A DNA stretch of 48,333 nucleotides from a bacterium (GTDB lineage: Bacteria; Patescibacteriota; Patescibacteriia; Patescibacteriales; UBA12075): positions 1 to 48,333 of the forward strand of contig JBDRDI010000028.1 of assembly GCA_043820875.1 (NCBI GenBank). The letters run 5' to 3'. This document shows, piece after piece, positions 984-45,207 of the stretch (positions are counted from its first letter, which is position 1; each line of letters begins with the position of its first letter). The position numbers and the translations under genes are program-made. A model generated the notes under the pieces. The model was not told where the DNA came from. It saw nothing but the letters and a program-made list of their open reading frames with translations, and made no database searches.

Positions 984-1096
984 GAGTCTAAAGTCTAAAG
1001 TCAAAAGTCTAAAGTCCGATAATAAATAAAATTATTTTTAAATCTAATTGTCGTTACGCTAACGACTTTCGACTTTGGACTTTCGATTTTGGACTA
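984..1096. repeat. Inverted pair of heptamer tandem arrays (AAGTC[TAC][AG] x5 / [CG]GACTTT x4-5)
   Basis: 984-1018 gagtcta aagtcta aagtcaa aagtcta aagtccg; 1063-1096 cgacttt cgacttt ggacttt cgatttt ggacta. Confidence 0.9.
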
Positions 1097-1774
1097 AAGA
1101 ATGTATTTGCCAACTTTTTGGTCGCCGATAATTCGTCCGGCGTCCATGGTGATTACTCGTTTTTTAAGTCTATTAACCACCTCTCTGTTGTGCGTCACTA
1201 AGACGACTGTGGTGCCGAATTTATTTATTCTTAATAATAATTCAATAATGTCATTGGCGTTCAATGAATCAAGATTTCCGGTGGGCTCGTCGGCCAAGAG
1301 AATTTTCGGACGATGAACCAAGGCGCGCGCGATTGCCACCCTCTGCTGTTCGCCTCCGGAGACTTCTTGTGGATAACGATCCATTTTTGATTCCAATCCC
1401 ACGATTTTCATAACGTGCGGAACTATCTTTTTGATTTTCTCTCGCCCGCTACCACAAACTTGCATGGCAAACGCCACGTTTTCAAACAAAGTTTTTTGAG
1501 ATAAGAGTTTAAAATCTTGAAAGATAACTCCGATTTGTCTTCTCAATTCCGGCACTTCGCTCAATCCAATTCGCGTAATATCCCAACCGCCAACCACAAT
1601 TTTGCCCTCAGTAATCCGCTCCTCACCGATTAATGTCTTTACAAAGGTGGTTTTGCCTGTTCCTGATTGTCCTACAATTGAAATAAATTCACCAGGCAAA
1701 ACGTGCAAATTCACTCCCTGCAGAGCCACGACGTTCTTGGGATAAATTTTGGAAACATTATAATACTTAATCAT
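1094..1774 (-). CDS. ftsE: Cell division ATP-binding protein FtsE
   Basis: Walker A GQSGTGKT, 'LRRQIGVIFQDFKLL', SGGEQQR signature, ADEPTGNLD; adjacent to ftsX. Confidence 0.93.
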   Translation of the reverse strand: MIKYYNVSKIYPKNVVALQGVNLHVLPGEFISIVGQSGTGKTTFVKTLIGEERITEGKIVVGGWDITRIGLSEVPELRRQIGVIFQDFKLLSQKTLFENVAFAMQVCGSGREKIKKIVPHVMKIVGLESKMDRYPQEVSGGEQQRVAIARALVHRPKILLADEPTGNLDSLNANDIIELLLRINKFGTTVVLVTHNREVVNRLKKRVITMDAGRIIGDQKVGKYIL

Positions 1775-1786
1775 AAAAATTTTAAA

Positions 1787-3397
1787 TTAAATCGCGGGCA
1801 ATATTTTTTTCAATCCGAATTCTATTAAATCTTTTGTTTGCGCGAAACTTGTGTCTTTGTCTTCAGCCCCCATGGTTACGACAATTAAATTACCAAACTG
1901 ATTCGCGACTCTGGTCATGAGACAATATCCGGCCTCAATCAAATATCCGGTTTTTGATCCGGTAATGTTTCCAACCAAATTATATCGCAATAAATTATTT
2001 GTATTTCTTATTGTATGGTCAATGTCGCTTCCGGTCTTGAATTTATACTCTTTTGTTATGCTCGCCGCCGCTATGGTTTGGTTTTGCAGAGCCTCTTTGG
2101 TTATTATAGCATAATCTCGGGCAGAACTCATATTTTTTGGAGACAATCCTGTCGGGTCAAAAAAGAAAGTGGAGCTCGCACCAATTTCTTGCGCAAAATT
2201 ATTCATGCGTGAAACAAATTCTTCTCGAGTTAATCCGCTTACTCTCACCAAGCTTTCCACAGTATTATTTGTTGAACCGATAATTGATGAATAGAACAAA
2301 TCTTTTACTTTAATTGTTTCCCCTTCTTCCATATTCAAACTAGAGATACTATATTTTCTATCACAATCTTCATAATTATATTCTTTGTCCTGTTCACTAT
2401 AAGCAACCACTCTTTCCATGTCCGGATTGGTTTCCATAAAAACTTTCATGGCCGCGAGCTTGGTCAAACTTGCCAGTGGCAAGGCTTCGTTTTCTTTTTT
2501 GGCCCAAATTATTTTGCCCGTACCCTCTTCCATTACAATTCCGGACTTCATGCTTATTTCAAATTCACTTTTTGCGCCTTGAGGAGCTATGCCCATTATT
2601 TTTCCGTCCGCATCCGGAAGGACAAGCAACGGCTCAAGTTTTATATCAACTGTACCGGCGGAAAGTGAAGCTATTTTGGCGAAAGCTTCTTTCTCCAAAT
2701 CAATGGCACGGTCCGGAAAAATCGATCGATCTGGTCCATAATCATTAATTTCAACATCAACGTATTTATTATTGTTTTTGTTATGTACTCTGATTATTGA
2801 TCCTTTTGGAAAATCCGGCGAAGCCGCATAATTTCCGGACTTGAATTTATACCAGCTGGCCTTGCCGTTTGTTAAAACTTTTGGATAAGAAAAAATCGCT
2901 ATGCGGGCGAATGGAAGATGAATCAGAGACCGCACAAAATTTTCTCCTGGATAATCTCTTGTTGGTAAAGGCCGCCAGGCGCCATAATTTTTGTCATAAA
3001 AAAATACCTGCTTGTAGTTGTCATCGTCTTTATCATACGACATTTGGATATAAAACGGCTTATGATCGTCATATGCCGCTTTATTTCTAAATTCAAACTG
3101 ATACACCTGACTGATTTTATCAACCTGCCACGGATAATTCATATCTTCGTTCAATATTACCACATCCACCCCTGTCGCCTCACTCAAAATACCCGGCACT
3201 AAAGATAATTTAATTTTATTCTCAAAGGCTGTCACTGTATAGCCTTTGGCAATCGTTGCCGCGTCCAAACGAATAAAAAATTCTTGATTTGCGCTTTCTT
3301 CCGCTGCTGTAAAATTTATATTTGGTAAAACAAAAATACTAATTATTAAAATTAGTTTCATCGCGCGCTTACATTGGACCATAATTTTTTTTGTCAT
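1787..3397 (-). CDS. Secreted fusion protein: RlpA-like double-psi beta-barrel plus D-alanyl-D-alanine carboxypeptidase (peptidase S11)
   Basis: Signal-like N-terminus; 'GKASWY...VEINDYGP...DRAIDLEKEAF' RlpA DPBB motif; PBP motifs SLTK (SxxK), STN (SxN) and KTG. Confidence 0.85.
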   Translation of the reverse strand: MTKKIMVQCKRAMKLILIISIFVLPNINFTAAEESANQEFFIRLDAATIAKGYTVTAFENKIKLSLVPGILSEATGVDVVILNEDMNYPWQVDKISQVYQFEFRNKAAYDDHKPFYIQMSYDKDDDNYKQVFFYDKNYGAWRPLPTRDYPGENFVRSLIHLPFARIAIFSYPKVLTNGKASWYKFKSGNYAASPDFPKGSIIRVHNKNNNKYVDVEINDYGPDRSIFPDRAIDLEKEAFAKIASLSAGTVDIKLEPLLVLPDADGKIMGIAPQGAKSEFEISMKSGIVMEEGTGKIIWAKKENEALPLASLTKLAAMKVFMETNPDMERVVAYSEQDKEYNYEDCDRKYSISSLNMEEGETIKVKDLFYSSIIGSTNNTVESLVRVSGLTREEFVSRMNNFAQEIGASSTFFFDPTGLSPKNMSSARDYAIITKEALQNQTIAAASITKEYKFKTGSDIDHTIRNTNNLLRYNLVGNITGSKTGYLIEAGYCLMTRVANQFGNLIVVTMGAEDKDTSFAQTKDLIEFGLKKILPAI

Positions 3398-3406
3398 CTA
3401 CTGTTA

Positions 3407-3416
3407 ATTATAACAT
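3407..3416 (-). promoter_or_regulatory. Extended -10 promoter (ATGTTATAAT) for the rlpA-dac/ftsE/ftsX unit
   Basis: TGnTATAAT ending 10 nt upstream of the ATG at 3397. Confidence 0.55.
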
Positions 3417-3463
3417 AGAAAAAAAGAAAATAAAAAGAAAAAAAGAAAAAAAAGAGACACCTC

Positions 3464-3492
3464 TTGAAAAAAATATAGTTTCCGCTTATTAT
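3464..3492 (+). promoter_or_regulatory. Sigma70-type promoter for tRNA-Thr
   Basis: TTGAAA-N17-TATTAT ending 8 nt before the tRNA, preceded by an A-rich tract (3417-3455). Confidence 0.55.
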
Positions 3493-3500
3493 AAATATAC

Positions 3501-3573
3501 GCCGAAGTAGCTCAGTTGGTAGAGCGATGCTCTCGTAAAGCATAGGTCACGGGTTCGACTCCCGTCTTCGGCT
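3501..3573 (+). tRNA. tRNA-Thr(CGT)
   Basis: Cloverleaf: acceptor GCCGAAG/CTTCGGC, D arm GCTC/GAGC, anticodon stem ATGCT/AGCAT with loop CTCGTAA, T arm ACGGG-TTCGACT-CCCGT; CCA not encoded. Confidence 0.96.
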
Positions 3574-3586
3574 CTGACAAACCCAT

Positions 3587-4909
3587 TTAATTCACAAAAC
3601 TCCAAATCTTATAATCCTGCGCCGTTTCTGCCAAATACTCGTCCAGCGTCAATCCGGCCACAAAAACATAGCTATATTCAAAAAAACTATATTCTTCTTT
3701 CCTCATTTTAAATATATAATATCCTTCTTTGGTAAAAACAACGGGACTCACTTCCCCGTTTTTTAAATCTTTTATTTTTTCTGTAAAATCAAACGAATTT
3801 TTATTTTCATTAGTCAAAGAAAATGTTCCGCTTTGATCTCCATATCTCAAGGCCACTCCCAAAAAATCTCCTGTGTCAGCTATTTCTTCCGCAATTTTTT
3901 TTATCCTATAAATCGCGATTTGATTGATATCTTCGTCAGATGCCACCTGATAAGCAAGATAGTCTTGCATGGATTCTTTATCATCTAAATCCTCTGATTT
4001 AATATTATACTTCTTTATTAAACTTCCGTAGATTATATCTTTAATTATTTCCAGCTTGGTTTCTTTGTCCAGTTCTGCTGAAGAAACATCGCCAATAAGC
4101 CCATCTTTCGTATCTTGATATTTATAATAATCCACAAAACAATCTTTCGTAATCATGGCCGGGACAGGAAAATATTCAGTTATTTTTCTAAAAAAATTAT
4201 TATCCACACCGGTTTTAATAATCAATGCGGCAGAAATTGAATAAATTAAAAAATAAAAAACCAATGCGAACAAGAAAAAAAGAAAAGTTTTGGAGCATGC
4301 CGATATTATCCGTGCCTGCCAAGATTTTTGATTTAATAAATTAATTTTCTTTTTTGAAAAATTAAAATCCTCTTTTTGTTTTGGCTTATTTAAATTATAT
4401 TTCTTCTCTTTCTTTTTCTTCTCTTTCTTTTTCTTCTCTTTCTTTTTCTTCTCTCTCTTTTTCTTCTCTTTTTCTTTCTTCTCTCTCTCTTTCTTCTTAT
4501 CTTCTGTAGTTTTATCTTTCCCATTGGCCCACGGGTATTTTATTAATGCTTCCAGGGCAGGTAAACTCTTCTCTTCGTTTTTCTCTTTTACCAAGGCAGG
4601 AACGGCCACCTTCTCCGGCAATATTATTTCTTGAACCGGCGGAGCAATGTCTCCAACGACCTCTCTCAAATCTTTTTTTGCCTCCGTCAAGTTTTCCGGA
4701 CGGACAAGCTTGTCCATTCTTTTTGCCCTGTTTGTTTCCGTACTTCGCGCCACAGCTCCGTCAATATTTTTTTTCACTATTTTTCCGGGATTAAATTTTT
4801 TATTATCTCTCGGGTCTTTTTCATTAAGCAATGTCAAAACAACTTTCCGCGAAACTTCCGCTTCGTTTTTATCTATTTTGTTTACTCCGTCCAATTTTTT
4901 ATTTTCCAT
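3587..4909 (-). CDS. Membrane-anchored protein with C-terminal degenerate parvulin/PrsA(SurA)-like domain and long charged N-terminal region
   Basis: One TM segment at about aa 205-235; C-terminal 'LKNGEVSPVVFTKEGYYIFK' resembles a PpiC-type motif; poly-KKKEK tract. Confidence 0.55.
   Translation of the reverse strand: MENKKLDGVNKIDKNEAEVSRKVVLTLLNEKDPRDNKKFNPGKIVKKNIDGAVARSTETNRAKRMDKLVRPENLTEAKKDLREVVGDIAPPVQEIILPEKVAVPALVKEKNEEKSLPALEALIKYPWANGKDKTTEDKKKEREKKEKEKKKREKKKKEKKKKEKKKKEKKYNLNKPKQKEDFNFSKKKINLLNQKSWQARIISACSKTFLFFLFALVFYFLIYSISAALIIKTGVDNNFFRKITEYFPVPAMITKDCFVDYYKYQDTKDGLIGDVSSAELDKETKLEIIKDIIYGSLIKKYNIKSEDLDDKESMQDYLAYQVASDEDINQIAIYRIKKIAEEIADTGDFLGVALRYGDQSGTFSLTNENKNSFDFTEKIKDLKNGEVSPVVFTKEGYYIFKMRKEEYSFFEYSYVFVAGLTLDEYLAETAQDYKIWSFVN
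4400..4498. repeat. 15-bp tandem repeat (TTCTTCTCTTTCTTT, about 6.5 copies) encoding KKKEK repeats
   Basis: Units start at 4401, 4416, 4431, 4446, 4461, 4476 and 4491; the + strand is purely pyrimidine. Confidence 0.9.
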
Positions 4910-4920
4910 AAAATAGATTA

Positions 4921-5334: not shown

Positions 5335-5335
5335 A

Positions 5336-8014: not shown

Positions 8015-8155
8015 TAAAAAATTATTATTTTTAAAAATTATCCACTCTCTATTATAACATATTTATTGCTTGTGGGTCTATAACAAAAAAATCACTCTTT
8101 TAAATTAAGTGATTTATTATAATAACGTTTACGACTTTCTACTTCATGCTAATCT

Positions 8156-9736: not shown

Positions 9737-10361
9737 AATTATTCTTACGCCGGCCGATTTTTAGTATTTTCTTTTTAAAAATAATATCCCCAGTATAATA
9801 CAAAATATAATAAAAAACAATAAAAGCAAAGAGGTTTTTAAAACGGGTAAAATCAGTAAAATATGTAGAAGCTTTTTGAATAATTTCCATCGGTTTCATG
9901 AAGACCTCCCAGCTGTTCAATCTATCAATAAGACCCAGCATGACTCCAAGCGAAATGACAGGTATTCCAAGCGGGGCAAAAAATAAAGCGGTTCTCTTGC
10001 CAAAAATTTTGGATATCAAGGTTTTCATTTGATTAAAAAGATAAACAAATCCCACCCAACCAATTACGGCATAGGTGAAAAAAAACATAATCATCCAGGC
10101 GTTCTCCACGCATATTCTGTTTTTGTTATCCGGGCAAAAGCCTGATAAATGTCTTGCGTCGGCCACAACATAGGCCGTGTTGGGAATGAAGAGAATCCAA
10201 AAAAACGCCAAAAAAATCGCTAGGACAATGTGAATCAGACGCCGAAATTTTGTTTTTTTCCATAGCTCCCCCAAACACAGAGATAAAAAAAATGGAATTA
10301 TTAATAAAAATAAGTTCCAAAATATATATACTATATAATAATCATTAATCGCAAAATTCAT
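9729..10361 (-). CDS. Integral membrane protein, DUF1361-like
   Basis: 'WNLFLLIIP', 'WILFIPNTAYVVAD' and 'RLNSWEVF' motifs; about 5 TMs; overlaps the GT2 gene by 8 nt. Confidence 0.7.
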   Translation of the reverse strand: MNFAINDYYIVYIFWNLFLLIIPFFLSLCLGELWKKTKFRRLIHIVLAIFLAFFWILFIPNTAYVVADARHLSGFCPDNKNRICVENAWMIMFFFTYAVIGWVGFVYLFNQMKTLISKIFGKRTALFFAPLGIPVISLGVMLGLIDRLNSWEVFMKPMEIIQKASTYFTDFTRFKNLFAFIVFYYILYYTGDIIFKKKILKIGRRKNNYV

Positions 10362-10373
10362 AAGTCCAAATAA

Positions 10374-12242
10374 TTAAAAAGATGTCTCATCCCCGTCTTT
10401 CGGAGCGACTTCTGTCCCCTGTTTTTCAGAATTTTTAAATTTGTTTTGAGAAGAATCATGATGAAAATTTGTTCCACGTTTTTTTCCGGAAAAATTTACC
10501 GGACCGCGTCGCAGGGCCTCGGACAAAGAAATTTCTTCTTCAGTTGCGACAAACTCCTTAACAAGCGCAACTTGTGGAAAACTCTCGCTTCTTACTTCTT
10601 TTTTTGAATCTTCTTTTTCTTTTAATTTTTTCAATTCTTCTTGCTTGTCTTTCAGACGACGTTCTGTTTCGTCTTGCTTTTCTTTTTTGGATTGTCTTAA
10701 ACATTCTTTGCAAAGAACAGGCCGTAAACCATCCGGCAAAAAAGAAGTTTTGGTCTCTTTGCCACATCGAGCGCAAATTGCCGAATATTTATAAATATCA
10801 TTATCCGAAAAATTACCTTCTTTTTTTTTCGTTCTTTCTCCGAAAGAAGACTGCGGAAAACTTTTCTTTTCCGCGACGGGTATTTTTTTATTTTTATTTA
10901 TTGGGGGTTGTTCATTTTCCGGGTCATGACCATTCTCATGCCAGAGATTAATTATATCTTCAACTTCTTTTTTATTTTTTGCATAACGCTCTCGACTGGT
11001 ATTGATTGCTTCTTCTGTATTGCCGGTCTTTTCTTCTTCGTTTAACGGTCTCAAACCTCGCGCAGAAAAAGGCTGAGAGGCTATGCCATCAATCATTAAT
11101 TTCAAATAAATTTCATATTTCGGCAGATTAACAATATCTTCATCCGTAAAAATCGGGGCGAATTCCGGCATCAAAACTTCCGCGTCGGCGGCACCAACTC
11201 GAAAAACAATCAAAGTGCCCACATTCCCGAAAACCGCGCTTTGCACCTCCTCGCTCAATTGTTCAATATATTGATGGGCCAATGTTATATTCAAACGATA
11301 TTTTCTGGCTTCAGATAAAATATTTGCAAAACTTTCTGTCGCAAAATTTTGAAATTCATCAACATATAAATAAAAATCTTTTCTTTCATTTTCCGGTACA
11401 TTAACCCGACTCATGGCGGCCAACTGTATTTTGGTAATTACCATCGCTCCCAATAAAGCTGAGTTGTCTTCACCGATGCGACCCTTACTTAAGTTAAGAA
11501 TCAAAATCTTTCCTTCGTCCATAATCTTCCGCATATCAATCGTGGATTTCGTCTGGCCAATGATATTACGAATTAATGAACTGGATAAAAATTGGCCGAC
11601 TTTATTTTGAATCGGAGAAACAGCTTCAGCGGCAAATTTGTCGTTGTATCCCGCGAACTCATTTACCCAAAAAGATTTCACCACCGGATCATGTATTTTC
11701 TCAATGACTTTTTTTCGAAAAGTTTTGTCAGACAACATACGCGTAATTGCCAAAAGCGTTGAACCGGGATATTCCAAAACCGCCAAAATTGAATTTCTTA
11801 AAATATATTCCAAACGAGGCCCCCACGAGTCAGCCCATAATTTTTGAAATACGCCAATCAAACCAGAGGCCACAAGGTGGCGTAAGTGCGGTTCAACTTG
11901 TTCCACCACATTGAACGCGATTGGATATTCCATGTCGGCCGGATTAAAATAGACAACATCTTTAATGCGATCGGAAGGAATATATTCTATCACTTTTTCC
12001 GACAAATCTCCGTGCGGGTCAACCACTGCCACACCGTGCCCGGCGCGAATATCTTCCACAATCATATTTTCCAATATGGTGGATTTTCCCATGCCGGTTT
12101 TACCAATTAAATACATATGGCGGCGGCGGTCGTCTTTTTTAATACCAAATTTTCTGATTTTATTTCGAAACGTAGTTTCGGCAAAAACTATTATATCATC
12201 GTTTTCCATAATATGCTTATTATAATTTTTATCTTTAAACAA
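10374..12242 (-). CDS. VirD4/TraD/HerA-like P-loop ATPase with C-terminal CxxC-x17-CxxC domain
   Basis: Walker A GKTGMGKS, DPHGD, Walker B LYVDEFQNF, 'SEARKY'; CARC-x17-CKEC near the C-terminus. Confidence 0.85.
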   Translation of the reverse strand: MFKDKNYNKHIMENDDIIVFAETTFRNKIRKFGIKKDDRRRHMYLIGKTGMGKSTILENMIVEDIRAGHGVAVVDPHGDLSEKVIEYIPSDRIKDVVYFNPADMEYPIAFNVVEQVEPHLRHLVASGLIGVFQKLWADSWGPRLEYILRNSILAVLEYPGSTLLAITRMLSDKTFRKKVIEKIHDPVVKSFWVNEFAGYNDKFAAEAVSPIQNKVGQFLSSSLIRNIIGQTKSTIDMRKIMDEGKILILNLSKGRIGEDNSALLGAMVITKIQLAAMSRVNVPENERKDFYLYVDEFQNFATESFANILSEARKYRLNITLAHQYIEQLSEEVQSAVFGNVGTLIVFRVGAADAEVLMPEFAPIFTDEDIVNLPKYEIYLKLMIDGIASQPFSARGLRPLNEEEKTGNTEEAINTSRERYAKNKKEVEDIINLWHENGHDPENEQPPINKNKKIPVAEKKSFPQSSFGERTKKKEGNFSDNDIYKYSAICARCGKETKTSFLPDGLRPVLCKECLRQSKKEKQDETERRLKDKQEELKKLKEKEDSKKEVRSESFPQVALVKEFVATEEEISLSEALRRGPVNFSGKKRGTNFHHDSSQNKFKNSEKQGTEVAPKDGDETSF

Positions 12243-13797: not shown

Positions 13798-13810
13798 AAT
13801 AAATATGATT

Positions 13811-13891
13811 CAAATTTACAAATAATATGCGAATCTACGAATATTTTAATAATTTTTGTATTTGTAGATTTGCATATCATTTGTAGATTTG
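13811..13891. repeat. 33-bp imperfect inverted repeat built from TAC[AG]AAT-like units
   Basis: caaatttacaaataatatgcgaatctacgaata / tatttgtagatttgcatatcatttgtagatttg; 4 mismatches, all transitions. Confidence 0.85.
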
Positions 13892-13932
13892 CATTATATA
13901 TTATATTATACCACATTCATCGCCGAAAACAC

Positions 13933-13966: not shown

Positions 13967-13987
13967 CGCGTGTGATTATTTATTTCT

Positions 13988-18192: not shown

Positions 18193-19263
18193 TCAAATAA
18201 GCAACTTCTCTACAACTCTCCGCACCTCATCTTTCTCGGCGATTTTTATCACATCTTTAATTTTACTTTTAAAAGACTCTTGACGCGATTTATTTTCCAA
18301 TAAACTTTTAATATTGACTATAAAATCTTCTTTGTTTATTTTCTTTTGGTCTAAAACTATTCCAGCCTCTTTTTCTTCAAAAATTTTCGCGTTATCTTCT
18401 TGATGCGAATCAGGCATGGGGATAAGAATTGCGGGTTTGCCAAGGGCGGAGATTTCTGTCAAAGCGCCCATACCACAGCGGGTGACAACGATATCCGCAA
18501 CTGTGTAGGCTTTGAGCATTCCAAAAGTGTCCACGAACTCAAAGGCGCGATAATTTTCACTGTCCACTTTATTGGTATTTTTTCCTTTACCGGTAATATG
18601 AATGATTTGGCAGAATTTTTCCAGACTCTCCCTGCTTTCGTAAACCAAGTCGTTAATCTTTTGTGCGCCCGTACCTCCTCCCATAATCAACACGGCTGGA
18701 AGCGAATCGCTTAAACCAATTTTTTGCAAAGCTTCACGGCGCGATATTTTTATATCCAAAAATTTTGGCCTTATCGGATTACCAAGCCACGTCGCTTTAT
18801 TACTATAATCTTTTAATGACTTTTCAAACGTAACCGTAATAATCTTGGCGCAAGGCGCCATTAATCTATTGGCCAATCCAGCCATAGCGTCTTGTTGATG
18901 AATTAAAACCGGCACGCGACAAACCCAAGAAGCCCACACAACAGGGACGCTGACAAATCCTCCGGCGCTTATTGAAGCGAAGGGCCTTTCTTTTAAGATA
19001 ATAAAAATAGACTGAAAAAAACCAATGATAATAAAAAATAAATCAATAAAATTCAAAAATGAAAAATAGCGCCGCCACTTTCCGGAATAAATAGAAATAA
19101 ATTTAATCCCCTCTTCTTCCACCATTTCTTTTTCCACGCCTTTGTGAGTCCCAATCCAAATAGAATCTGACATCCCATCCGCGATTGCCAAAAGCGGAGT
19201 CACGGAGCCAGCCGTTCCACCACCGGAAAAAAGTATTTTAACAGATTGTTTTTTATTTAACAT
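18193..19263 (-). CDS. murG: Undecaprenyldiphospho-muramoylpentapeptide beta-N-acetylglucosaminyltransferase
   Basis: GGGTAGS, GGFVSVP, HQQD, GNPIR, GGGTGA and HQEDNA motifs. Confidence 0.95.
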   Translation of the reverse strand: MLNKKQSVKILFSGGGTAGSVTPLLAIADGMSDSIWIGTHKGVEKEMVEEEGIKFISIYSGKWRRYFSFLNFIDLFFIIIGFFQSIFIILKERPFASISAGGFVSVPVVWASWVCRVPVLIHQQDAMAGLANRLMAPCAKIITVTFEKSLKDYSNKATWLGNPIRPKFLDIKISRREALQKIGLSDSLPAVLIMGGGTGAQKINDLVYESRESLEKFCQIIHITGKGKNTNKVDSENYRAFEFVDTFGMLKAYTVADIVVTRCGMGALTEISALGKPAILIPMPDSHQEDNAKIFEEKEAGIVLDQKKINKEDFIVNIKSLLENKSRQESFKSKIKDVIKIAEKDEVRRVVEKLLI

Positions 19264-19269
19264 AAATTT

Positions 19270-19308
19270 ACTTTTGACTTTCGACTTTTGACTTTAGACT
19301 TCAAACTA
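19270..19308. repeat. Heptamer tandem array (ACTTT[TCA]G, about 5 copies) abutting the ftsW stop
   Basis: acttttg actttcg acttttg actttag acttcaa acta; same unit as the array at 1063-1096. Confidence 0.85.
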
Positions 19309-20415
19309 CCGTGTATATTTACTAATATTAACCAAAATTCCCAATGCGGCCAATGCGGATAAAATCGCGGACCCGCCATAACTCACCAAAGGCAACGGAA
19401 CACCTGTCATGGGCATAATGTTCACTATTCCGCCAATATTAACAAATGCCTGAACCGCAAGCCAGCTGACAATACCTATCGCTAAAATTCTACCAAAATC
19501 GTCTGGAGCTTTCAAGGCAATCTTATATCCTTTATAAAATAAAAATAAAAAACATCCGATAAAAAGCGTAGAAAAAACAAAGCCAACTTCTTCGGCCATA
19601 ATCGCAAAAATTGAATCGCTATAAACTTCTGGCAAATACATAAATTTTTGTCGACTTGCTCCGAGTCCTCGACCGAATATTCCTCCTGATCCAACGGCAA
19701 TCAATGACTGATTCACTTGATAACATCTGTCATTCGCACTATAGGCAGAATCAAACACGCACCTGAATCGATCCATTTGATACGGTTTGAATTGTGCCAA
19801 AACAGTAATACCCAAAACAGCGACAATAATAATAATTAATATATGTTTGGTACTGCCTCCACCCACAAAATAAACAATCAGAGATGTCGCGCCAAGAATG
19901 GACAAAGTACCGATGTCCGGTTGGAGAACCATAAGCGCTGCGATAACTCCGAGTATAAAAACGAATGGTCCGATACCCATTTCAAAATTATGTAAATCAT
20001 TTTTTCTCGCCTCCAACCATGCGGCCAAATAAAGAAGGAAAGACAATTTTACGAATTCCGAAGGCTGTAGAGAAAAACCGAAAATATTTATCCAACTTCT
20101 AGCAGTTCCATATCCGGCGCTTAATCCTGGGATAAAAACCAAAAACAATAAAAGAATTGAAAAAAATAAAAATCCAACAGCGTACTTTTTCCAAATATGA
20201 TAATCAATTTTGGAAAAATACCAAAAAGCGATGCCACCCAAAAAAGTCCAGACCAATTGACGTTTTAAATAATAATAAGCATCCCCAAATTTATTATAAG
20301 CCATAACCGAAGACGCACTGGACAAACAAATTAAGCCAAAAACGATTAAAACCCCAATAATAATAAGCAAATAAGCGTCAACTTCCCTCCTGGATTCATT
20401 GTTTTTATAAATCAT
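19306..20415 (-). CDS. ftsW: SEDS peptidoglycan glycosyltransferase FtsW
   Basis: QPSEFVK, QPDIGT, GSGGIFGRG and TGVPLPLVSYGGS motifs; located between mraY and murG. Confidence 0.93.
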   Translation of the reverse strand: MIYKNNESRREVDAYLLIIIGVLIVFGLICLSSASSVMAYNKFGDAYYYLKRQLVWTFLGGIAFWYFSKIDYHIWKKYAVGFLFFSILLLFLVFIPGLSAGYGTARSWINIFGFSLQPSEFVKLSFLLYLAAWLEARKNDLHNFEMGIGPFVFILGVIAALMVLQPDIGTLSILGATSLIVYFVGGGSTKHILIIIIVAVLGITVLAQFKPYQMDRFRCVFDSAYSANDRCYQVNQSLIAVGSGGIFGRGLGASRQKFMYLPEVYSDSIFAIMAEEVGFVFSTLFIGCFLFLFYKGYKIALKAPDDFGRILAIGIVSWLAVQAFVNIGGIVNIMPMTGVPLPLVSYGGSAILSALAALGILVNISKYTR

Positions 20416-23789: not shown

Positions 23790-23828
23790 ATTTAAATTTC
23801 ATATTCTAAATTCTAAATTCCAATTTAA
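23787..23828. repeat. Degenerate heptamer array (TAAATTC-like) between pilB and pilC
   Basis: taaatt taaattt catattc taaattc taaattc caatt, beginning at the pilB TAA. Confidence 0.6.
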
Positions 23829-31927: not shown

Positions 31928-34186
31928 TTAATAAACTATTCCGGCGACATTCACGCCTTTATTAAAACTTTCCTCATGTGCGTAAAATGAGCCGATCGCC
32001 TTGCCGTCATTTTCAAAAATCATAACGTGCGGTGCTCCGCCGGGACCGGCTCCGGTAATTATCTCATCATATCCATTGCGATTGATATCCGCCGAAGACA
32101 CGCTCACGCCTCCTTGAAATTTTTTATTATAGGCAAAAAAACTATTTTCCATATTGCTGTGGTTGTCAAATATTTTTACTTCAGGATTGGCGCCTTTGCC
32201 GGGCGCGGTAATTATTCTCTCTCTTCTATCTCGCGTACCGCCTCCAAAATTTGCCGTGGCCACGTTTACACCACCGCGAAAATTTTTGTCATAAGCAAAA
32301 AACTGTCCATCCAATTCGCCATTTACTTCAAAAATTCGAACCTGAGGACCGCCACCAAAACCAGCTCCGGTAATTATTTCGTCAACTCCGTCGCCGTCAA
32401 CATCACCGGCGGCCACGTTTACACCACCGCGAAAATTTTTGTCATAAACAAAAAACTCTCCAATCAATCTGCCATTTGCTTCAAAAATTCGAACCTGAGG
32501 ACTTCCTCCACGCCCGGCACCAGCTATTATTTCGTCAACTCCGTCGCCGTCAACATCACCGGCGGCCACGTTTACACCACCGCGAAAATTTTTGTCATAA
32601 GCAAAAAACTGATTCAATAATTCCCCGCTTCTATTAAAAATTCGGACATGCGGTCCGCCACCAAAGCCGGCTCCGGTAATTATTTCGCCTGCCTCGTCTC
32701 CGTCAATATCACCAGTTGCCACAGACGCTCCACCAAAAAAATTATTCCCATAAGCCATAAACTCATTATCGGTATTTCCATTCATCTCAAACGTTAAAAT
32801 TTGGCTTTTTCTTTCACTCATCGGCGCAGTAATTATCCGCGCGCTACGAAAAATTAAATTTTCTTCCGCACCGGACACGGCTTTGGATAAATTTAAACGA
32901 CCAGCGCCCAATTCTCCAACGAAAGAAGGATTAACACGTGAAATATCATCAACATTTTCTTGCAAATATTTTATCACGCCATTTCTGTCCAGACTTGGAT
33001 TTATTTCTGAAACAAGCGCAGCGGCCGCGCTTACCATCGGCACAGCCATTGACGTTCCTGACCAATAACCGTCATAATATCTGTTAAACATATAACCGCT
33101 AACAAATCTTTCAGGCGCGTAAACCGCGAGTCCAAAAATACTTACACCTGGCGCGGAAATATCAATACATTTTTTTCCATATCCGGAAAACACCGCTTTT
33201 TGGTCAAGAGTATCAGTCGCGGCAACGCCAATAATCATATTTTCTCCGTCATTTCCGTCATAGCAAACCGGATACATTGGCCTGTCATCAAGGTTATATC
33301 CACTTTCCATTCCTTGCTCATTGCCAGCAGCGGCAACAATAATTATACCGTTTTGATAAGCTCTCTTTATGGCCTCTTCCAGGCTTTTACTGTACCCCGA
33401 ACCAATAAAACTAAAATTTATAATATCCGCGCCGTTGGCAATCGCATAATCAATCGCCCTAATCACATTCCTTGTATCACCCTCACCTTTATCGTTGAGA
33501 ACTTTAAGGGCCATAATCTGAGCATGCCACGTTACGCCGACAACGCCTTTTTTGTTGTTGCCTTCCGCGGCCGCGACTCCGGCCACAATTGTACCGTGTA
33601 AAATTCCTTCCTGGGTAAATCCTTCTTCAAATTTTGGAGACGGGTCAGGAACATTATTCACAAAATCCCAACCATACGCATCATCAATAAAACCGTTCCT
33701 ATCGTCATCAAAAAAATTGCCCTCTATTTCTTTTTTATTTTTCCAAATATTATTCTGTAAATCCGGATGGGCAATGTCCACCCCAGAGTCAATAATCGCA
33801 ATAACAATATTTCGCGTGTCATTAATCTTATCCCAAGCACGAGCGGCTTTTATTTTTGTCAAATACCATTGATTATCATAAGAAATATCCGAAGGAATGA
33901 TTGTCGCTTTATAAGTATAATTCGGTTCAGCATATTCAACTTCTTGATTCTCTTTATATTTTTCTATCTCGTCAAATAAATTATAATTGCCTACTTCAAT
34001 ATGTTCAACTTCGAGGATATTCTTATATTTAACCAATATTCCATTCGAACTGGACATGACTTCGCCATTGGCGGATAAAATTTTTATTGGAAATAAAAAT
34101 AATATTAAAATTGCTATAACAAGCAAAAATTTTAATCTATATAATAACTTTATTCCAATAAAAAAAGATGCTATTTTTTCATTCAT
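31928..34186 (-). CDS. Secreted S8 subtilisin-like peptidase with C-terminal FG-GAP/VCBS-like repeats
   Basis: Catalytic triad motifs IIDSG, HGT and GTSMA; repeats 'FFAYDKNFRGGVNVAAGDVDGDGVDEII' with a 51-aa period. Confidence 0.9.
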   Translation of the reverse strand: MNEKIASFFIGIKLLYRLKFLLVIAILILFLFPIKILSANGEVMSSSNGILVKYKNILEVEHIEVGNYNLFDEIEKYKENQEVEYAEPNYTYKATIIPSDISYDNQWYLTKIKAARAWDKINDTRNIVIAIIDSGVDIAHPDLQNNIWKNKKEIEGNFFDDDRNGFIDDAYGWDFVNNVPDPSPKFEEGFTQEGILHGTIVAGVAAAEGNNKKGVVGVTWHAQIMALKVLNDKGEGDTRNVIRAIDYAIANGADIINFSFIGSGYSKSLEEAIKRAYQNGIIIVAAAGNEQGMESGYNLDDRPMYPVCYDGNDGENMIIGVAATDTLDQKAVFSGYGKKCIDISAPGVSIFGLAVYAPERFVSGYMFNRYYDGYWSGTSMAVPMVSAAAALVSEINPSLDRNGVIKYLQENVDDISRVNPSFVGELGAGRLNLSKAVSGAEENLIFRSARIITAPMSERKSQILTFEMNGNTDNEFMAYGNNFFGGASVATGDIDGDEAGEIITGAGFGGGPHVRIFNRSGELLNQFFAYDKNFRGGVNVAAGDVDGDGVDEIIAGAGRGGSPQVRIFEANGRLIGEFFVYDKNFRGGVNVAAGDVDGDGVDEIITGAGFGGGPQVRIFEVNGELDGQFFAYDKNFRGGVNVATANFGGGTRDRRERIITAPGKGANPEVKIFDNHSNMENSFFAYNKKFQGGVSVSSADINRNGYDEIITGAGPGGAPHVMIFENDGKAIGSFYAHEESFNKGVNVAGIVY

Positions 34187-34234
34187 AACACCTATATTAT
34201 AACATATCAGCTTTTTTATTGGAAATATCTATTT

Positions 34235-35518: not shown

Positions 35519-35529
35519 AAATAATTAAC

Positions 35530-36537
35530 TTATTTTGTTGCCAATATTGATCTTTTATAACTATCCAAATTATCCAATGCGATTCCTGTTCCTTTAGCAA
35601 CACACAAGATGGAATCGTCGGCGACATAGGCCGGCACGCCAGTAGTGCGAGAAAGCAGTTGATCGATATTGCGAAGAAGTGAGCTACCTCCGGAAAGTAC
35701 CATGCCTTTGTCCATAATATCCGCTGATAATTCCGGTGGAGTTTCGTGAAGCACTTTTTTTACGGCCGCAATGATCGCTTCCAATTCATTTTGCAAAGCC
35801 TCTGTCACATCGCTACTGGTAATGGTGATACTGCGTGGCAAACCGGTCAAAATATCACGTCCGCGTATTTCCATGGATAATTTATCTTCTAAATAAAGTG
35901 CTGAGCCGATATTTATTTTTATTTCTTCGGATGTGCGTTCGCCGATGGCTAAATTATATTTTTTTCGGATATATTCTAAAATAGCGGCATCAAATTTATT
36001 TCCGCCAACACGGACAGATGTAGAGGCAACAATTCCACCAAGAGAAATAACAGCCATCTCTGCTGTTCCGCCGCCAATATCAATAATCATATGTCCTGAA
36101 GCCGAACCAATTGGAATATCCGCGCCAATGGCGGCCGCTATAGGTTCTTTTATAATATAGGCTGCCTTTGCGCCGGCAGCGATTGTCGCGTCAATAACCG
36201 CGCGCCTTTCCGTGGAAGATATTCCCGCCGGCACGGCAACCATAACCTCTGGTCTAAAAAGACGCATGCCTCCAAGCGCCTTATTAATAAAATATCGGAG
36301 CATGGCCTCTGTGGTTCTGTAATCCGCGATCACTCCGTCTTTCAAAGGTTTAAGCGCAATAATGGTGTCAGGCGTACGGCCAAGCATATCTTTAGCTTCA
36401 TTGCCAACTGCTAAAACTTTTTTGTCAGTCAACGAAACCGCCACGACAGAAGGCTCATTAATCACAATTCCCCTCTTCGGCAAATGAACCAATGTATAGG
36501 CTGTTCCCAAATCAATTCCAATTCTTTTTATAAACAT
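35530..36537 (-). CDS. mreB: Rod shape-determining protein MreB (start ATG 36537)
   Basis: IGIDLGT, EPSVVA, DIGGGT and LSGGSSLL motifs. Confidence 0.95.
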   Translation of the reverse strand: MFIKRIGIDLGTAYTLVHLPKRGIVINEPSVVAVSLTDKKVLAVGNEAKDMLGRTPDTIIALKPLKDGVIADYRTTEAMLRYFINKALGGMRLFRPEVMVAVPAGISSTERRAVIDATIAAGAKAAYIIKEPIAAAIGADIPIGSASGHMIIDIGGGTAEMAVISLGGIVASTSVRVGGNKFDAAILEYIRKKYNLAIGERTSEEIKINIGSALYLEDKLSMEIRGRDILTGLPRSITITSSDVTEALQNELEAIIAAVKKVLHETPPELSADIMDKGMVLSGGSSLLRNIDQLLSRTTGVPAYVADDSILCVAKGTGIALDNLDSYKRSILATK

Positions 36538-36549
36538 ATGATAAAATAT

Positions 36550-36621
36550 TAAAATTATTTGTATTTTTTTGTTAGGCTGGGTTTTAAAACTCAGCCTAAC
36601 AAAAAAATACAAATAATTTTA
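36550..36621. repeat. 72-bp near-perfect palindrome (one G/T mismatch, no spacer)
   Basis: taaaattatttgtatttttttgttaggctgGgtttt|aaaacTcagcctaacaaaaaaatacaaataatttta. Confidence 0.92.
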
Positions 36622-38640
36622 TTTTCCTGCTTTCAATTCAAATTCCGCGTCGGCTTTTAGGTTTGTGCTCCAGACAACCCTTTTACTGCCGATTTTTTCC
36701 GCGTAAAATCCGGTCGGTTGATATGATTCTACATTATTTATTAATTTTAAGTCAACATTCAACGAACCTATGTCATTACCCGGTTGTTTTTGAACAAACA
36801 AATTATAATTTCCCTGCTTTGCATTATTTTCCACATTAGCAGGAAGCTGATAAAGAAAATGCAAATTACCAATCTTGCCAGGTTCAATTGAGAGAAATAC
36901 TGCAAAAACCGTTTTACCATTTTCGTCATATTGTTCAACTTCATCATCGGACATTCCGCCGGCTGAAATTAATTTTGAACCCAAAGGAACATAAACTCGC
37001 GTGTATGTTCTGTATCGCGTGGTTTTCCAATCAAACTTTCCAAAATGCGCGTAATTGACGGACAAATCCGCGAATAATCCGCTCGCGCCCTGTCTTACTT
37101 TATAATCAATACTTCTCTTAATAACCGCGTCTGTTTTCAGAGCGGCCATGTTGGCGTCCACCACCATAAGATAATCGCCGTCTGTTTCTTTTATTTCACC
37201 GGCGAATCCTTTTTCTTCGGCCAATTTTTGATATTCCGGATCATGAAAATAAATCAAAATATTTTTTCTTGCCAAATTACTGTCTATTATATCAAATATT
37301 TCAAAAAAATCTTCCACTTTTCTGTTTAGTATTTTTACTTTCAACTCATTCACTATCTCGCCGACCACTTCTTTTCTTTGCCAGGAAGAAACTCCCAATT
37401 GAACATAACCTCTTTCAACTTTGTATTGCAATAAATCAACAAAATTATCTTTATCATAAACTTGGCCGTCAATTGTAATCGGCCCGATATATGCCAAAAG
37501 TTCAGTCACCAACTGCGGAGTAATGGCAATCACTCCATCAAATTGGTCGGAAAAATTATTGATTTTGTTTTTCTCAGGCAATAAATCATCTTCTCCGTGA
37601 TAAAACCATTCGATTTTTTGTGCAGACTCGGGCCAGTCCGGAGACCAATTCGCGTCGCGCATATACCATTTTTTAATTCCCAAATATTTTTCCAAAGGCG
37701 CGGGAGGCGCGACAGAAAACACGTCTTTCACCGGCATATCCAAATGATAGACATCATGCGTTTCAAATCTGACAGTGTCGCCGTTAAATGTTTCCAATAT
37801 ACCATAAGTCCCGATAAATCCGCCAGTGGGCCGAAGCTCGTCGCTATTTTGAAGTATAACCAAAAAAGAAGATTTATCAGGATAGCCGAAGAGCGGTGAA
37901 GAAAGCTGACAAAGTGGTATGGCCTTGGACAAAAAATCTCTGGCTTTATAAACATACTGTTTCAATTCCTCCACTTTACTCTTGATGGGAAAAAGCAGTC
38001 CGCGGGAAGATACTTTTTCAATATTTTCGGCTGCCAAATCCATGTCTTCTTTAATGCTGTTTAATTCCGGACCGCTATCGTGCAAAGTCGCCAGTATATT
38101 TCTTTTTTCTTCCACTGTTAATTCGTTGTACCCCTTGTCTTTCAATTGCAGTGCTCCCTCCATTTTCGCACCAATCTCACTGCCACTTACAGCCGCTCGG
38201 CTCACCATTTCCGCTGTAAAAACAAGATGCGCCGCATCGTCAATCTGTTCGGACAAAAAACCGATTTTATTGATCAAGAAATTATTCTGCAAACTTTCCA
38301 GACCTTTGGCGGAAAAAGAAAAATTTTCTTCCGCTGATTTGGCATATTCGGCGGCATGAGCGAATTGCTTTTCCTGAACAAAGAAAACGGCCTGGTCGAT
38401 ATTTTTCTTCCCCGCAACCGCGTTGTCATAAATATTTTTTATTTGAGAAGAATAAATCAGCGCGACCAATAAAAAAACCGCGAACAACGCCACGATAATC
38501 GCGCAAAATAATTTTAAAAAATAATAAACAAAATACAAGTTTCTTTTCGCTTTTATAAACGGGATATTGTTTATTATATCTTTAATTTTCCGGCTCTGAC
38601 TTTTACGCCGAGCAATAAATTTTGGGATTAAAAAATTCAT
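36619..38640 (-). CDS. DUF4012 domain-containing membrane-anchored protein
   Basis: N-terminal TM; 'LVILQNSDELRPTGGFIGTYG' and 'RDANWSPDWPESA' motifs. Confidence 0.8.
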   Translation of the reverse strand: MNFLIPKFIARRKSQSRKIKDIINNIPFIKAKRNLYFVYYFLKLFCAIIVALFAVFLLVALIYSSQIKNIYDNAVAGKKNIDQAVFFVQEKQFAHAAEYAKSAEENFSFSAKGLESLQNNFLINKIGFLSEQIDDAAHLVFTAEMVSRAAVSGSEIGAKMEGALQLKDKGYNELTVEEKRNILATLHDSGPELNSIKEDMDLAAENIEKVSSRGLLFPIKSKVEELKQYVYKARDFLSKAIPLCQLSSPLFGYPDKSSFLVILQNSDELRPTGGFIGTYGILETFNGDTVRFETHDVYHLDMPVKDVFSVAPPAPLEKYLGIKKWYMRDANWSPDWPESAQKIEWFYHGEDDLLPEKNKINNFSDQFDGVIAITPQLVTELLAYIGPITIDGQVYDKDNFVDLLQYKVERGYVQLGVSSWQRKEVVGEIVNELKVKILNRKVEDFFEIFDIIDSNLARKNILIYFHDPEYQKLAEEKGFAGEIKETDGDYLMVVDANMAALKTDAVIKRSIDYKVRQGASGLFADLSVNYAHFGKFDWKTTRYRTYTRVYVPLGSKLISAGGMSDDEVEQYDENGKTVFAVFLSIEPGKIGNLHFLYQLPANVENNAKQGNYNLFVQKQPGNDIGSLNVDLKLINNVESYQPTGFYAEKIGSKRVVWSTNLKADAEFELKAGK

Positions 38641-38800
38641 ATTAAAATTCGCGAATTATTAGATATTTTCGCAAAATAAAAATAAACTTGATTTTAACAA
38701 ATAATGAATTTATTATACTAAAATTGATTAGATTAAGCAAGCTCAATTTTATATAGACCCCGCTGACAAAAAATGGGAGATGGGCGAGGGGTGAGGGCAA

Positions 38801-40090: not shown

Positions 40091-40095
40091 ATTAT

Positions 40096-41340: not shown

Positions 41341-41348
41341 ATTTAAAA

Positions 41349-42062: not shown

Positions 42063-42077
42063 AACACTTCTACAAAA

Positions 42078-43985: not shown

Positions 43986-43994
43986 ATTATTATA

Positions 43995-44387
43995 TTATTT
44001 TTTTATTTTACTTCTATTTTCTATAATTTTAATTACTTTTTCAGAAAATTGTTCCAAATTTAATTCTTTTTTGGAGAAAAAATATTCCGCTCCCAAGTCA
44101 GCGCATTTCTTTTTTGATTTATCGTCGCTTAATTTTGTATAAACAAATACCGGAATATTCATTGTCTCTTTATTGCTCTTAATCGCATGTAGAAGATCAA
44201 ATCCGTCCATATTTGGAAAGCGAAAACCATGAACAATATAATCGGGTTGAGCTTCAATAATTTGTTCTATTATTTCTTTAATGGATAAAAAAATGTTGCA
44301 ATTTACAACTTCTAAATTATTTACCTTAAATTTCGCCTGCAAGCTATGCGAAGTATTTATATCATTTTCAATAATAAATATCTTCAT
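43995..44387 (-). CDS. Stand-alone receiver (CheY-like) domain protein, atypical
   Basis: 'KIFIIEND', 'PNMDGFDLL', 'IPVFVYT' and 'LGAEYFFSK'; the phosphoacceptor Asp is replaced. Confidence 0.75.
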   Translation of the reverse strand: MKIFIIENDINTSHSLQAKFKVNNLEVVNCNIFLSIKEIIEQIIEAQPDYIVHGFRFPNMDGFDLLHAIKSNKETMNIPVFVYTKLSDDKSKKKCADLGAEYFFSKKELNLEQFSEKVIKIIENRSKIKK

Positions 44388-44497
44388 AAATAATATTATT
44401 ATATTTATAGTTTATTTTTTATTATAACATATTGTTTTGTCAAAAGCAAAAAAATTATAGTCTATCATTTAAGCAGACGAATCATGACTTAAGACAA

Positions 44498-45109
44498 CTA
44501 AGCAAACTTCCTAATCACGCCACGCACGACTCCTTGAATCAGCGGGTCTTTGGCATAAATCGGCGACATGCTGGAATTGGCCGGCTGAAGACGTATTCGG
44601 TTTGTTTCGCGATAAAACTTTTTTAAAGTCGCATAAGCATTATTAAGAAGCGCCACTACCACATCTCCGTTCTGCGGCGATGGATTGCGTTCCACAATTA
44701 CATAGTCTCCACTTAATATCCCTTCTTCAATCATGGATTCTCCGCGAACTTTCAGGACATAGCTATTTTCCCTGTCAGTCACAAAATCAGATGGCACCGC
44801 AATTGTTTCGCGTTCTTCAACCGCCTCAATCGGTTCTCCGGCAGTAATAAGACCAGCCAACGGCAACATCACAGCTTCAGCCCAGTTGATTTCTGCTTTT
44901 ACCAATTCAATTGAACGCGACTCGTTAAAAGAACTTTTTAAAAATCCTTTTCGCTTCAGATTGTCAATATGAACGTGAATTGTGGACGGACTATTGAGCC
45001 CAAAATGCGTTCCGATCTCCCGCATGCTTGGTGAATAGCCCTTTTTATGAACAAACTCTGTAATGTAGTCCAAAATTTCTCTTTGTCTTTTTGTTAAATT
45101 TTTACCCAT
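44498..45109 (-). CDS. lexA: SOS repressor LexA
   Basis: 'LTKRQREILDYI...GYSPSMREIG' wHTH, Ala-Gly cleavage site (TAG), catalytic Ser (GESM) and Lys (ATLKK). Confidence 0.96.
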   Translation of the reverse strand: MGKNLTKRQREILDYITEFVHKKGYSPSMREIGTHFGLNSPSTIHVHIDNLKRKGFLKSSFNESRSIELVKAEINWAEAVMLPLAGLITAGEPIEAVEERETIAVPSDFVTDRENSYVLKVRGESMIEEGILSGDYVIVERNPSPQNGDVVVALLNNAYATLKKFYRETNRIRLQPANSSMSPIYAKDPLIQGVVRGVIRKFA

Positions 45110-45207
45110 AAAAGAAGAAGGGAAAAGTAGAAGATAGAAAGTAGAAAGTCACACATTTTAAATTCCAAATTCCAACTTTATCCCCAATTAAATTATTATT
45201 TATCTTT

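Follow-up and report, generated by a model that had tools for sequence, protein, structure and literature searches.

Heptamer arrays at gene junctions of a patescibacterial genome as probable gene-less members of a family of intervening-sequence-type hairpins

Arrays at gene junctions in the window

The window analysed here is the whole 48,333-nt contig C28 of a genome from a member of the Patescibacteriota (919,545 bases, 37% GC, 60 contigs, assembly 92.55% complete), in which short tandem arrays of heptamers lie at several gene junctions. An earlier reading of the letters alone, referred to below as the original prediction, had listed five such arrays and proposed that they are scars or landing pads of small cargo genes. 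All five stretches read as it gave them, and the names of the genes around them (ftsE, ftsX, ftsW, murG, pilB, pilC, lexA, gyrB) agree with Pfam.

The array between ftsE (1094-1774, minus strand) and ftsX (65-976, minus strand) is a true inverted pair at 984-1096, a complete hairpin without a gene. Its left arm, five copies of AAAGTCN at 984-1017, begins 8 nt beyond the ftsX start codon (974-976). The 46-nt, AT-rich loop (1018-1063) holds a 7-bp mini-hairpin (1050-1066), and the right arm, five copies of NGACTTT at 1064-1096, terminates in the ftsE stop codon (1094-1096, minus strand). A one-base mismatch recurs at every seventh position of the stem. The sense RNA is predicted to fold with -28.8 kcal/mol (z = -3.87), and 0 of 200 shuffled sequences were as stable.

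Two other junctions carry single arms. Between ftsW (19306-20415) and murG (18193-19263), both on the minus strand, five NGACTTT units (AAAGUCN in the sense RNA) at 19267-19301 occupy the entire 42-nt gap from the ftsW stop codon (19306-19308) to the murG start codon (19261-19263); no complementary partner was found within 1.6 kb, the best candidate reaching 54%. Between pilB (22068-23789) and pilC (23829-24980), both on the plus strand, about six AAATTCY-type heptamers fill 23787-23828, which is exactly 42 nt, from the TAA of pilB to the base preceding the ATG of pilC. The leader of lexA (44498-45109, minus strand, start at 45109), which is divergent from gyrB (45395-47449, plus strand), contains a short single array of four units of the AAAGTNN family (AAAGTAG-like) at 45124-45151 and two AAATTCC units at 45160-45173, the latter too short to be called alone and of the same type as those at 23787-23828. 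The AAAGTAG-like and AAATTCC units are not mutually complementary, so they do not form an inverted pair.

The remaining stretch, given in the original prediction as 13811-13891, is an inverted repeat (13801-13824 and 13859-13882, 79% complementary) whose arms are two copies of a unit of about 19 nt with CAAAT cores 8-11 nt apart. It is not a heptamer array; Tandem Repeats Finder gave a period of 8 at only 70% match, with a score of 30. It sits between a GC-rich, terminator-like hairpin and the start of the next gene, and is possibly a longer-period relative of the heptamer elements. The claim that all five arrays have a period of 7-8 nt thus holds for four real period-7 arrays and fails for this one. 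The sharing of AAAGTCN by two arrays (984-1096 and 19267-19301) and the start of three arrays at the upstream gene's stop codon were described correctly. The count of three inverted pairs has to be reduced to one heptamer pair (984-1096) and one non-heptamer pair (13801-13882).

Repeats of other kinds also occur in the window. A 72-nt near-perfect palindrome at 36550-36621 (36-nt arms, 97% complementary, no spacer), not built of heptamers, spans the junction between two open reading frames (ORFs), 35530-36612 and 36619-38640, both on the minus strand. Two repeats are coding: a 153-nt unit present 3.0 times at 32258-32713 (82% match), which is a 51-residue protein repeat in the 752-aa ORF 31928-34186 (minus strand), and a 15-nt unit present 6.5 times at 4400-4497 (92% match), an in-frame low-complexity repeat in ORF 3587-4909 (minus strand).

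Arrays across the genome and in the 23S rRNA gene

The genome-wide scan for period-7 arrays that the original prediction had proposed was carried out with a detector that ignores the worst phase; two Markov-3 shuffles and periods of 8-12 served as controls. The excess over shuffled sequence was strong. At period 7 the genome contains 105 arrays, against 4 and 5 in the two shuffles and 0-4 at periods 8-12, and under a stricter setting 51 arrays against 0, 0 and 0, so that chance is excluded. Family and placement counts are based on the 92 arrays left when plain A/T runs are set aside. Families were assigned by core motif because a match to at least 6 of 7 consensus positions is too harsh given the free positions in the units. 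TCRGAT/ATCYGA accounts for 45 arrays, AAAGTC for 16, AAAGTW for 6 and mixed AAAGTN for 5 (27 AAAGTN overall); the others are TTAAC (8), GTTATG (2), AAATTCY (1) and various units (9). In all, 80 of the 92 arrays belong to a few families, and many show a super-period of 14 nt.

For about half of the arrays a complementary partner exists at a distance of 1-140 nt; the others are single arms, and no degenerate partner was visible in those flanks that were inspected. Among the listed hairpins and cassette arm pairs the order of arms is constant, with TCRGAT on the left and ATCYGA on the right or AAAGTC on the left and GACTTT on the right; it is reversed only where a tRNA separates two neighboring elements.

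The arrays lie mostly in transcribed DNA. Thirty-one of the 92 are found between co-directional ORFs and 29 abut a tRNA or tmRNA gene, while 8 lie within the 23S rRNA gene, 7 are arms of protein cassettes, 8 lie within long ORFs and 5 at contig ends; only 2 lie between convergent and 2 between divergent ORFs. When all contexts are counted, 35 of the 92 arrays are within 10 nt of the end of a tRNA or tmRNA gene and touch 28 of the 41 such genes, whereas 500 trials of random placement in intergenic DNA put 1.1 arrays there on average and never more than 5. Two AAAGTC-family arrays, at C12:1092-1133 and C18:23455-23498, lie in frame within long ORFs (509-aa and 429-aa proteins), to which they contribute a (V)ESQKSK-type peptide; in this they resemble the Rickettsia palindromic elements found within genes.

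This placement bears on the possibility that the arrays act at the DNA level, as regulator sites, G-quadruplexes or terminators controlling the neighboring genes. The lexA-leader arrays do lie in a divergent promoter region, and the available text of PMC4692102 interprets G-rich heptamers of Xanthomonas and Nostoc as quadruplex-forming. However, the units here have no G-runs. Their stems, 30-50 bp long and AT-rich, lack the regular U-tract of an intrinsic terminator and stand mostly inside operons, at 31 co-directional versus 2 convergent junctions (convergent ends make up 2 of the 92 arrays). The flanking genes are functionally unrelated (cell division, pili, tRNAs, rRNA), and the positions are not conserved between genera. 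We therefore regard operator or structural sites as very unlikely.

The 23S rRNA gene (contig C58, 9469-13572) measures 4104 nt and exceeds the Rfam model (2925 positions) by about 1180 nt. Its apical loops contain four heptamer hairpins, of the TTAAC and TCRGAT families, at model positions of about 583, 690, 1218 and 1765; by E. coli numbering the first and third of these should be helix 25 and helix 45. According to the available text of PMC4990558, helices 25 and 45 are classical sites of rRNA intervening sequences (IVSs). Since the unit families are shared with the 23S hairpins, the window hairpin is of the same make as the IVSs in the same cell. The presence of these elements in 23S rRNA, where they are in effect intervening sequences, and next to most tRNA genes goes beyond what the original prediction had foreseen. 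Two further insertions lengthen the gene, one of 344 nt near model position 1966-1987 and a GC-rich one of about 50 nt near position 282. We considered whether the flanking (processing) stem of 23S rRNA is itself built of heptamers and rejected this, as ordinary non-heptamer pairing was found there.

A gene for RNase III lies at C58:7391-7786, 1.7 kb upstream of the 23S gene. Cleavage of rRNA IVSs by RNase III has been published, and in the Coxiella IVS, where GACAGAT heptamers stand in tandem, the RNase III site is at the first of them (PMC4990558, as far as its available text goes). In contigs from RNA runs that match the 23S stretch, depth is near zero over three of the four hairpins, and in one study contigs with zero mismatches stop at 10323 and resume at 10428, the element itself being 10327-10426. 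This gap is a weak hint of cutting and no stronger, because contigs cannot prove RNA ends and rRNA of other organisms fills the flanks. By analogy with the published IVSs, we would give roughly even odds to the elements here being cut in RNA by RNase III. RNA contigs from a close relative (2 differences in 100 nt) join 10936 to 11077 across the element at model position ~1218, which is 150 nt long here; all that is left at the join is roughly one unit pair plus a bridge of 10 nt, and the hairpin there is either reduced in size or in its ancestral state.

Protein cassettes, dispersed copies and the repeat unit

Some arm pairs are 340-420 nt apart and each encloses one ORF. The genome has exactly four strong matches to PF05635, the four-helix-bundle family named "23S rRNA IVS protein" (S23p), at 68-113 bits, and all four genes lie between inverted heptamer arms made of the same unit families as the gene-less arrays. 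A weak fifth match (C21:17039-17344, 21.7 bits) has no heptamer arms and adjoins a reverse transcriptase; this pair (C21:16194-17344, PF00078 at 84 bits with a weakly matching four-helix-bundle gene) is probably a diversity-generating retroelement with its Avd. The cassettes are unlike such an Avd locus, as none of the four has a reverse transcriptase alongside and the gene next to the reverse transcriptase has no arms. Two arm pairs bracket core genes, smpB and frr, instead of a cargo gene. One of them belongs to a dense mosaic at C41:5306-7517 that comprises, in order, tRNA-Leu, a cassette whose PF05635 gene is truncated, tmRNA, smpB between AAAGTW arms, tRNA-Gly and a second cassette whose PF05635 gene is intact.

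The association is not confined to this genome. Among genomes of the same bacterial family, 21 of 25 have PF05635 genes. We compared 64 such genes, namely the 4 described above and 60 of the 88 matches in relatives (all except the 22 weakest and, of the best 66, 6 that lay close to contig ends). Flanking inverted arms were found for 53 of the 64, with a best period of 7 in 41 cases and other periods in 12. The proposed tie between the arrays and small cargo genes is thus borne out, both within the genome and across the family, and an optional PF05635 (S23p) ORF in the loop is a property of the element family, of which the window copies carry none. The companion claim, that GxxExxY genes are flanked by such arrays, also finds support. 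The single GxxExxY gene (PF13366, C24:189-660) lies between 44-nt inverted arms with an irregular period of about 9 nt; the units, with CATGATT cores, are about 8-10 nt apart.

The gene-less elements occur as dispersed copies. Over 114 nt, loop included, the ftsE/ftsX element (982-1095) is 94.7% identical to C32:6450-6563; three TCRGAT hairpins on C6, C18 and C20 share 83-89% identity, and the 23S element at model position ~583 is 83% identical to a hairpin in a tRNA spacer. The ftsE/ftsX junction was compared in 20 relatives, all of other genera, and resolved in 17. Nine of these junctions are empty (3-31 nt), three hold heptamer hairpins, one a short array and four other inserts. The three hairpins have different units, AATTTTG in G012, two other units in a nested arrangement in G021, and AAAGTCN in G017, where the hairpin starts in the TAG stop codon as it does in the window. 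At the ftsW/murG and pilB/pilC junctions of relatives the picture is similar: some gaps are empty (0-20 nt), some hold single arrays and others hairpins, whose units vary. In G010 and G011 other GC-rich inverted-repeat inserts lie at the ftsE/ftsX and pilB/pilC junctions, and it seems that small elements of several kinds can settle in these gaps.

These comparisons speak to the view that the arrays are scars of excised cargo genes or landing pads awaiting cargo. Cassettes of the same unit families do exist in the genome, single arms could be half-deleted elements, and the RNA contig of the close relative has one unit pair where the 150-nt 23S element stands here. On the other hand, the ftsE/ftsX element is an intact hairpin of five plus five units, and its near-identical copy with the same loop indicates copying of a gene-less element, not a footprint. 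The single arms retain their full five units, unlike random leftovers of deletion, and the cargo genes expected at orthologous junctions did not appear at any of the three junctions in the relatives examined. We consider scars or landing pads improbable. The arrays are better supported as gene-less relatives of the cargo cassettes.

The number of units per arm is sharply distributed. Runs of ATCYGA in register number 782 with 1 unit, 7 with 2, 1 with 3, 5 with 4, 30 with 5, 8 with 6 and 2 with 7; the corresponding AAAGTC counts are 524, 4, 4, 13, 8, 0 and 0, and TTAAC runs peak at 5 units (9 arrays). Scrambled-core controls gave nothing above 3 units in seven of eight cases, the eighth overlapping the real unit. 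The 78 arms of 39 cassettes in this and other genera also have a mode of 5 units (24 arms), followed by 4 (19), with only 10 arms above 5; in part, the smaller unit numbers reflect the strictness of allowing one mismatch. Five units are also present in two cassettes whose periods are 9 and 10 nt.

To relate the unit to the protein we compared cassettes whose unit is defined, in 691 pairs drawn from different genomes. Of the 34 pairs with protein identity of at least 0.6, 16 agree at 6 or more of the 7 unit positions, compared with about 1% of the 614 pairs below 0.4, and the mean match was 5.4 versus 3.5 of 7 positions. The observed rank correlation of unit and protein was reached in 10 of 2000 label shuffles, a figure that is indicative since kin are not independent. 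Cassette pairs within the same genome match at 3.9 of 7 positions, like unrelated pairs. In the related pairs 31.5% of four-fold degenerate sites (255 of 810) are identical, compared with 28.9% expected at saturation. Units are thus shared where synonymous sites are saturated, which argues that the unit is under constraint, lineage by lineage, although this does not name the partner. In scans of five genomes with three-unit patterns, TCRGAT gave 140 matches in this genome and 0-1 in the other four, TAGGCNT was found only in the two genomes with matching cassettes, and GATTTAN in the two genomes with matching cassettes plus a single one-mismatch match in G001.

The arrays might instead be neutral repeats made in place by slippage, with 7 nt a favored period, and be unrelated to the protein or to one another. 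In many bacteria heptamers outnumber all other long simple-sequence repeats, and slippage has been proposed as their origin (available text of PMC4679880), unit numbers differ between Coxiella strains (available text of PMC4990558), and the 14-nt super-period of many arrays fits duplication of unit pairs. However, the sharp peak at five units and the near absence of arrays of 2-3 units, far from a geometric distribution, show that the lengths do not come from slippage alone. The arm order in the listed hairpins is constant, loops are conserved between copies, and a few families make up 80 of the 92 arrays. Moreover, units are conserved beyond synonymous saturation and, for three of the four units tested, array units are restricted to genomes with a matching cassette. 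In-place slippage therefore has little to recommend it as the whole explanation, and we rank it no higher than the DNA-level sites discussed above.

A stronger alternative is that the elements are kept by the host as processing or insulator stems that separate tRNAs and cistrons in long transcripts, or guard the mRNA lying upstream against 3' exonucleases in the manner of repetitive extragenic palindromic (REP) sequences and bacterial interspersed mosaic elements (BIMEs), the cassettes being incidental passengers. Nearly all arrays are in transcribed, co-directional settings (31 versus 2 convergent and 2 divergent), 28 of 41 tRNA and tmRNA genes are abutted at 0-7 nt, where neighboring elements are of one family the arm in the leader of a tRNA could pair with the one in its trailer, as at the tRNA-Arg of C6 (4094-4245), and the RNase III gene is on the same contig as the rRNA. 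Yet roughly half of the related genera have nothing inserted at the same junction and others have unrelated units there, so that no junction needs the element. The stems show no sense-strand stability bias, single arms cannot serve as stems, the true flanking stem of 23S rRNA is of ordinary pairing, and the unit tracks the cassette protein, not the host genome, as the same-genome value of 3.9 of 7 indicates. We consider a host function of this kind unlikely, if less so than the other alternatives.

Taken together, we estimate a probability of about 0.6 that the window arrays are gene-less members of a genome-wide selfish family of IVS-type hairpins, one of them a complete hairpin and several of them single arms. 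That they belong to this element family, whatever its nature, is highly probable. Several results weigh against this interpretation. The AAAGTC family, with 16 arrays, has no exactly matching cassette in the assembly, the nearest being the AAAGTW cassette on C32, and 11 of the 64 PF05635 genes in the bacterial family have no arms. No PF05635-like ORF was found at the ftsE/ftsX, ftsW/murG and pilB/pilC junctions of the relatives examined, where the larger gaps were translated. No target-site duplication was seen at the two copies of the ftsE/ftsX element and no transposase was found, the only associated gene being PF05635, which is not a transposase family. The TTAAC pattern gave controls as high as its matches in G001, G003 and G036, a noisy test because the reversed control is itself repeat-like, and the co-variation of unit and protein could arise from linkage alone. 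About half of the arrays are single arms, unable to form a hairpin, so that RNase III cannot explain them. Finally, among 17 hairpins with a known transcribed strand the sense strand folds better in 7, the antisense strand in 7, and the two are equal in 3. The idea of hairpins within operons is borne out, in that the elements do lie inside operons and fold as hairpins; with no sense-strand bias (no G-U signature), however, selection on an RNA stem is not visible and a role at the DNA level is equally plausible.

A protein-binding site is a better match than a plain RNA stem for the single arms, the missing strand bias and the units that differ by lineage. The 64 PF05635 proteins are basic (median isoelectric point 9.35; 63 of 64 above 8), there are five chains in each of the solved relatives, 2gsc and 2rld, and the available text of PMC4990558 describes Xanthomonas S23p as a homopentameric toroid. 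A full element consists of a left arm of about five units, a loop or a small PF05635 (S23p) gene, and a reverse-complement right arm. We propose that it would be retained only at sites that tolerate a long stem in the RNA, as in surface loops of rRNA, tRNA spacers and the stop-to-start gaps of operons. In RNA, the RNase III of this genome may cut the stems, in the way published for rRNA IVSs. Each five-unit arm would be the binding site of one homopentamer of a basic S23p-type protein, one unit per subunit, and hairpins without a gene, like the single arms, would need the resident cassettes in trans, just as REPINs (the hairpin-forming REP doublets) need RAYT, the REP-associated tyrosine transposase. 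We infer recognition of five-unit arms by a pentameric S23p-type protein from these numbers and offer it tentatively; the fuller proposal, that S23p is a sequence-specific repeat reader whose ring binds one arm with a lineage-specific unit at each subunit, is somewhat more speculative still. Two other accounts of the unit were set aside. One was that a 7-nt period serves to place stop triplets in all three frames; many units do contain TAA, TAG or TGA, but several (e.g., NTCRGAT) have none, and such triplets were taken as a side effect. Adenine mutagenesis like that of diversity-generating retroelements, considered for the free seventh position, was dropped because adenines in the units are conserved.

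Relation to known elements and significance

The elements resemble the rRNA IVSs of Coxiella burnetii (helix 45), Leptospira, Salmonella and other bacteria, which the available text of PMC4990558 describes as inserted stem-loops with inverted repeats, an optional PF05635 gene and a sporadic distribution, with heptamers (GACAGAT) also in the Coxiella IVS. In 23S rRNA of the candidate phyla radiation (CPR), many short (<200 bp) ORF-less, non-intron insertions occur atop stem-loops at the classical IVS sites, with occasional 23S_rRNA_IVP ORFs; this survey deals with rRNA genes only, and in its available text the word "repeat" and a link to tRNA or mRNA junctions are absent (PMC11270868). Unlike IVSs, extended stem-loops with complementary ends that replace the apical loop of a 23S rRNA helix (classically helix 9, 25 or 45) and that RNase III removes from the precursor without re-ligation, the window arrays lie between protein genes, and most copies in the genome are outside rRNA, next to tRNAs, at operon junctions and, for a few, in frame in ORFs. 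The arms here are also regular five-unit heptamer arrays, single arms occur, and cutting by RNase III is a matter of analogy.

Long heptanucleotide simple-sequence repeats are known from cyanobacteria as short tandemly repeated repetitive (STRR) sequences. Other published examples are GGGAATC of Xanthomonas and GGGGAYT of Nostoc (PMC4692102) and the TAACTGA repeats of Beggiatoaceae, Cyanobacteria and Bacteroidetes (PMC4679880). As far as the available texts of these papers go, the repeats resemble ours in being tandem 7-nt units with one or two free positions, placed no more than 50 bp from a stop or start codon between genes of the same direction, and mostly transcribed. The Xanthomonas and Nostoc repeats mostly have about 4 units, with 70-75 convergent pairs in Xanthomonas (PMC4692102). 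They differ from the AT-rich units here, which lack G-runs, in having been explained by quadruplexes or an unknown regulator, and the available texts of PMC4679880 and PMC4692102 contain no link of heptamer repeats to S23p or IVSs that we could find. The arrays described here share the general features of heptanucleotide simple-sequence repeats, 7-nt units being arranged head to tail in non-coding DNA and period 7 being over-represented.

REP sequences and REPINs are hairpin repeat doublets in intergenic DNA, and RAYT is the gene of an HUH tyrosine transposase flanked by its own repeats. The system here is similar in having a single-copy gene with its own repeats, a lineage-specific repeat family, and gene-less copies that far outnumber the genes. 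In contrast, its protein is a four-helix bundle with no known catalytic motif and its arms are tandem, not a single palindrome. The associated genes match PF05635 only, not an IS200/IS605-like HUH transposase, and so the likeness is one of layout.

MITEs (miniature inverted-repeat transposable elements) and the Rickettsia palindromic elements are small, gene-less inverted-repeat elements present in many copies, the latter inserted in frame in genes. Our elements are likewise small, gene-less and numerous, with terminal inverted repeats, dispersed copies at 83-95% identity, loops included, and some in-frame copies (C12, C18). They differ from MITEs in that neither a target-site duplication nor a transposase-bearing parent element was found.

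The IVSs and S23p, the heptamer repeats near stop codons and the short rRNA insertions of the CPR have thus all been published. Our literature searches found no description of heptamer-armed S23p cassettes outside rRNA and no paper that brings these bodies of work together or places IVS-type elements at tRNA or operon junctions. What is added here is the identity, within one genome, of rRNA IVSs with junction hairpins, the association with tRNAs, the five-unit peak, and the co-variation of unit and protein beyond synonymous saturation. In practice, such elements break assemblies, lengthen rRNA genes and can pass for regulatory sites or terminators in annotation.

Three long-standing puzzles, the dominance of heptamers, the nature and spread of rRNA IVSs, and the function of the PF05635 four-helix bundle, appear in one small genome as faces of a single element family. 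The proposal can be tested by its numbers: arms of five units, a basic protein that is pentameric, and a unit specific to each lineage. If S23p proves to be a reader of repeats, the heptamer repeats of many phyla, the rRNA IVSs and the PF05635 family would be parts of one selfish system of protein plus repeat, which would spread to any transcribed site that tolerates a stem, be it an rRNA loop, a tRNA spacer or an operon junction.

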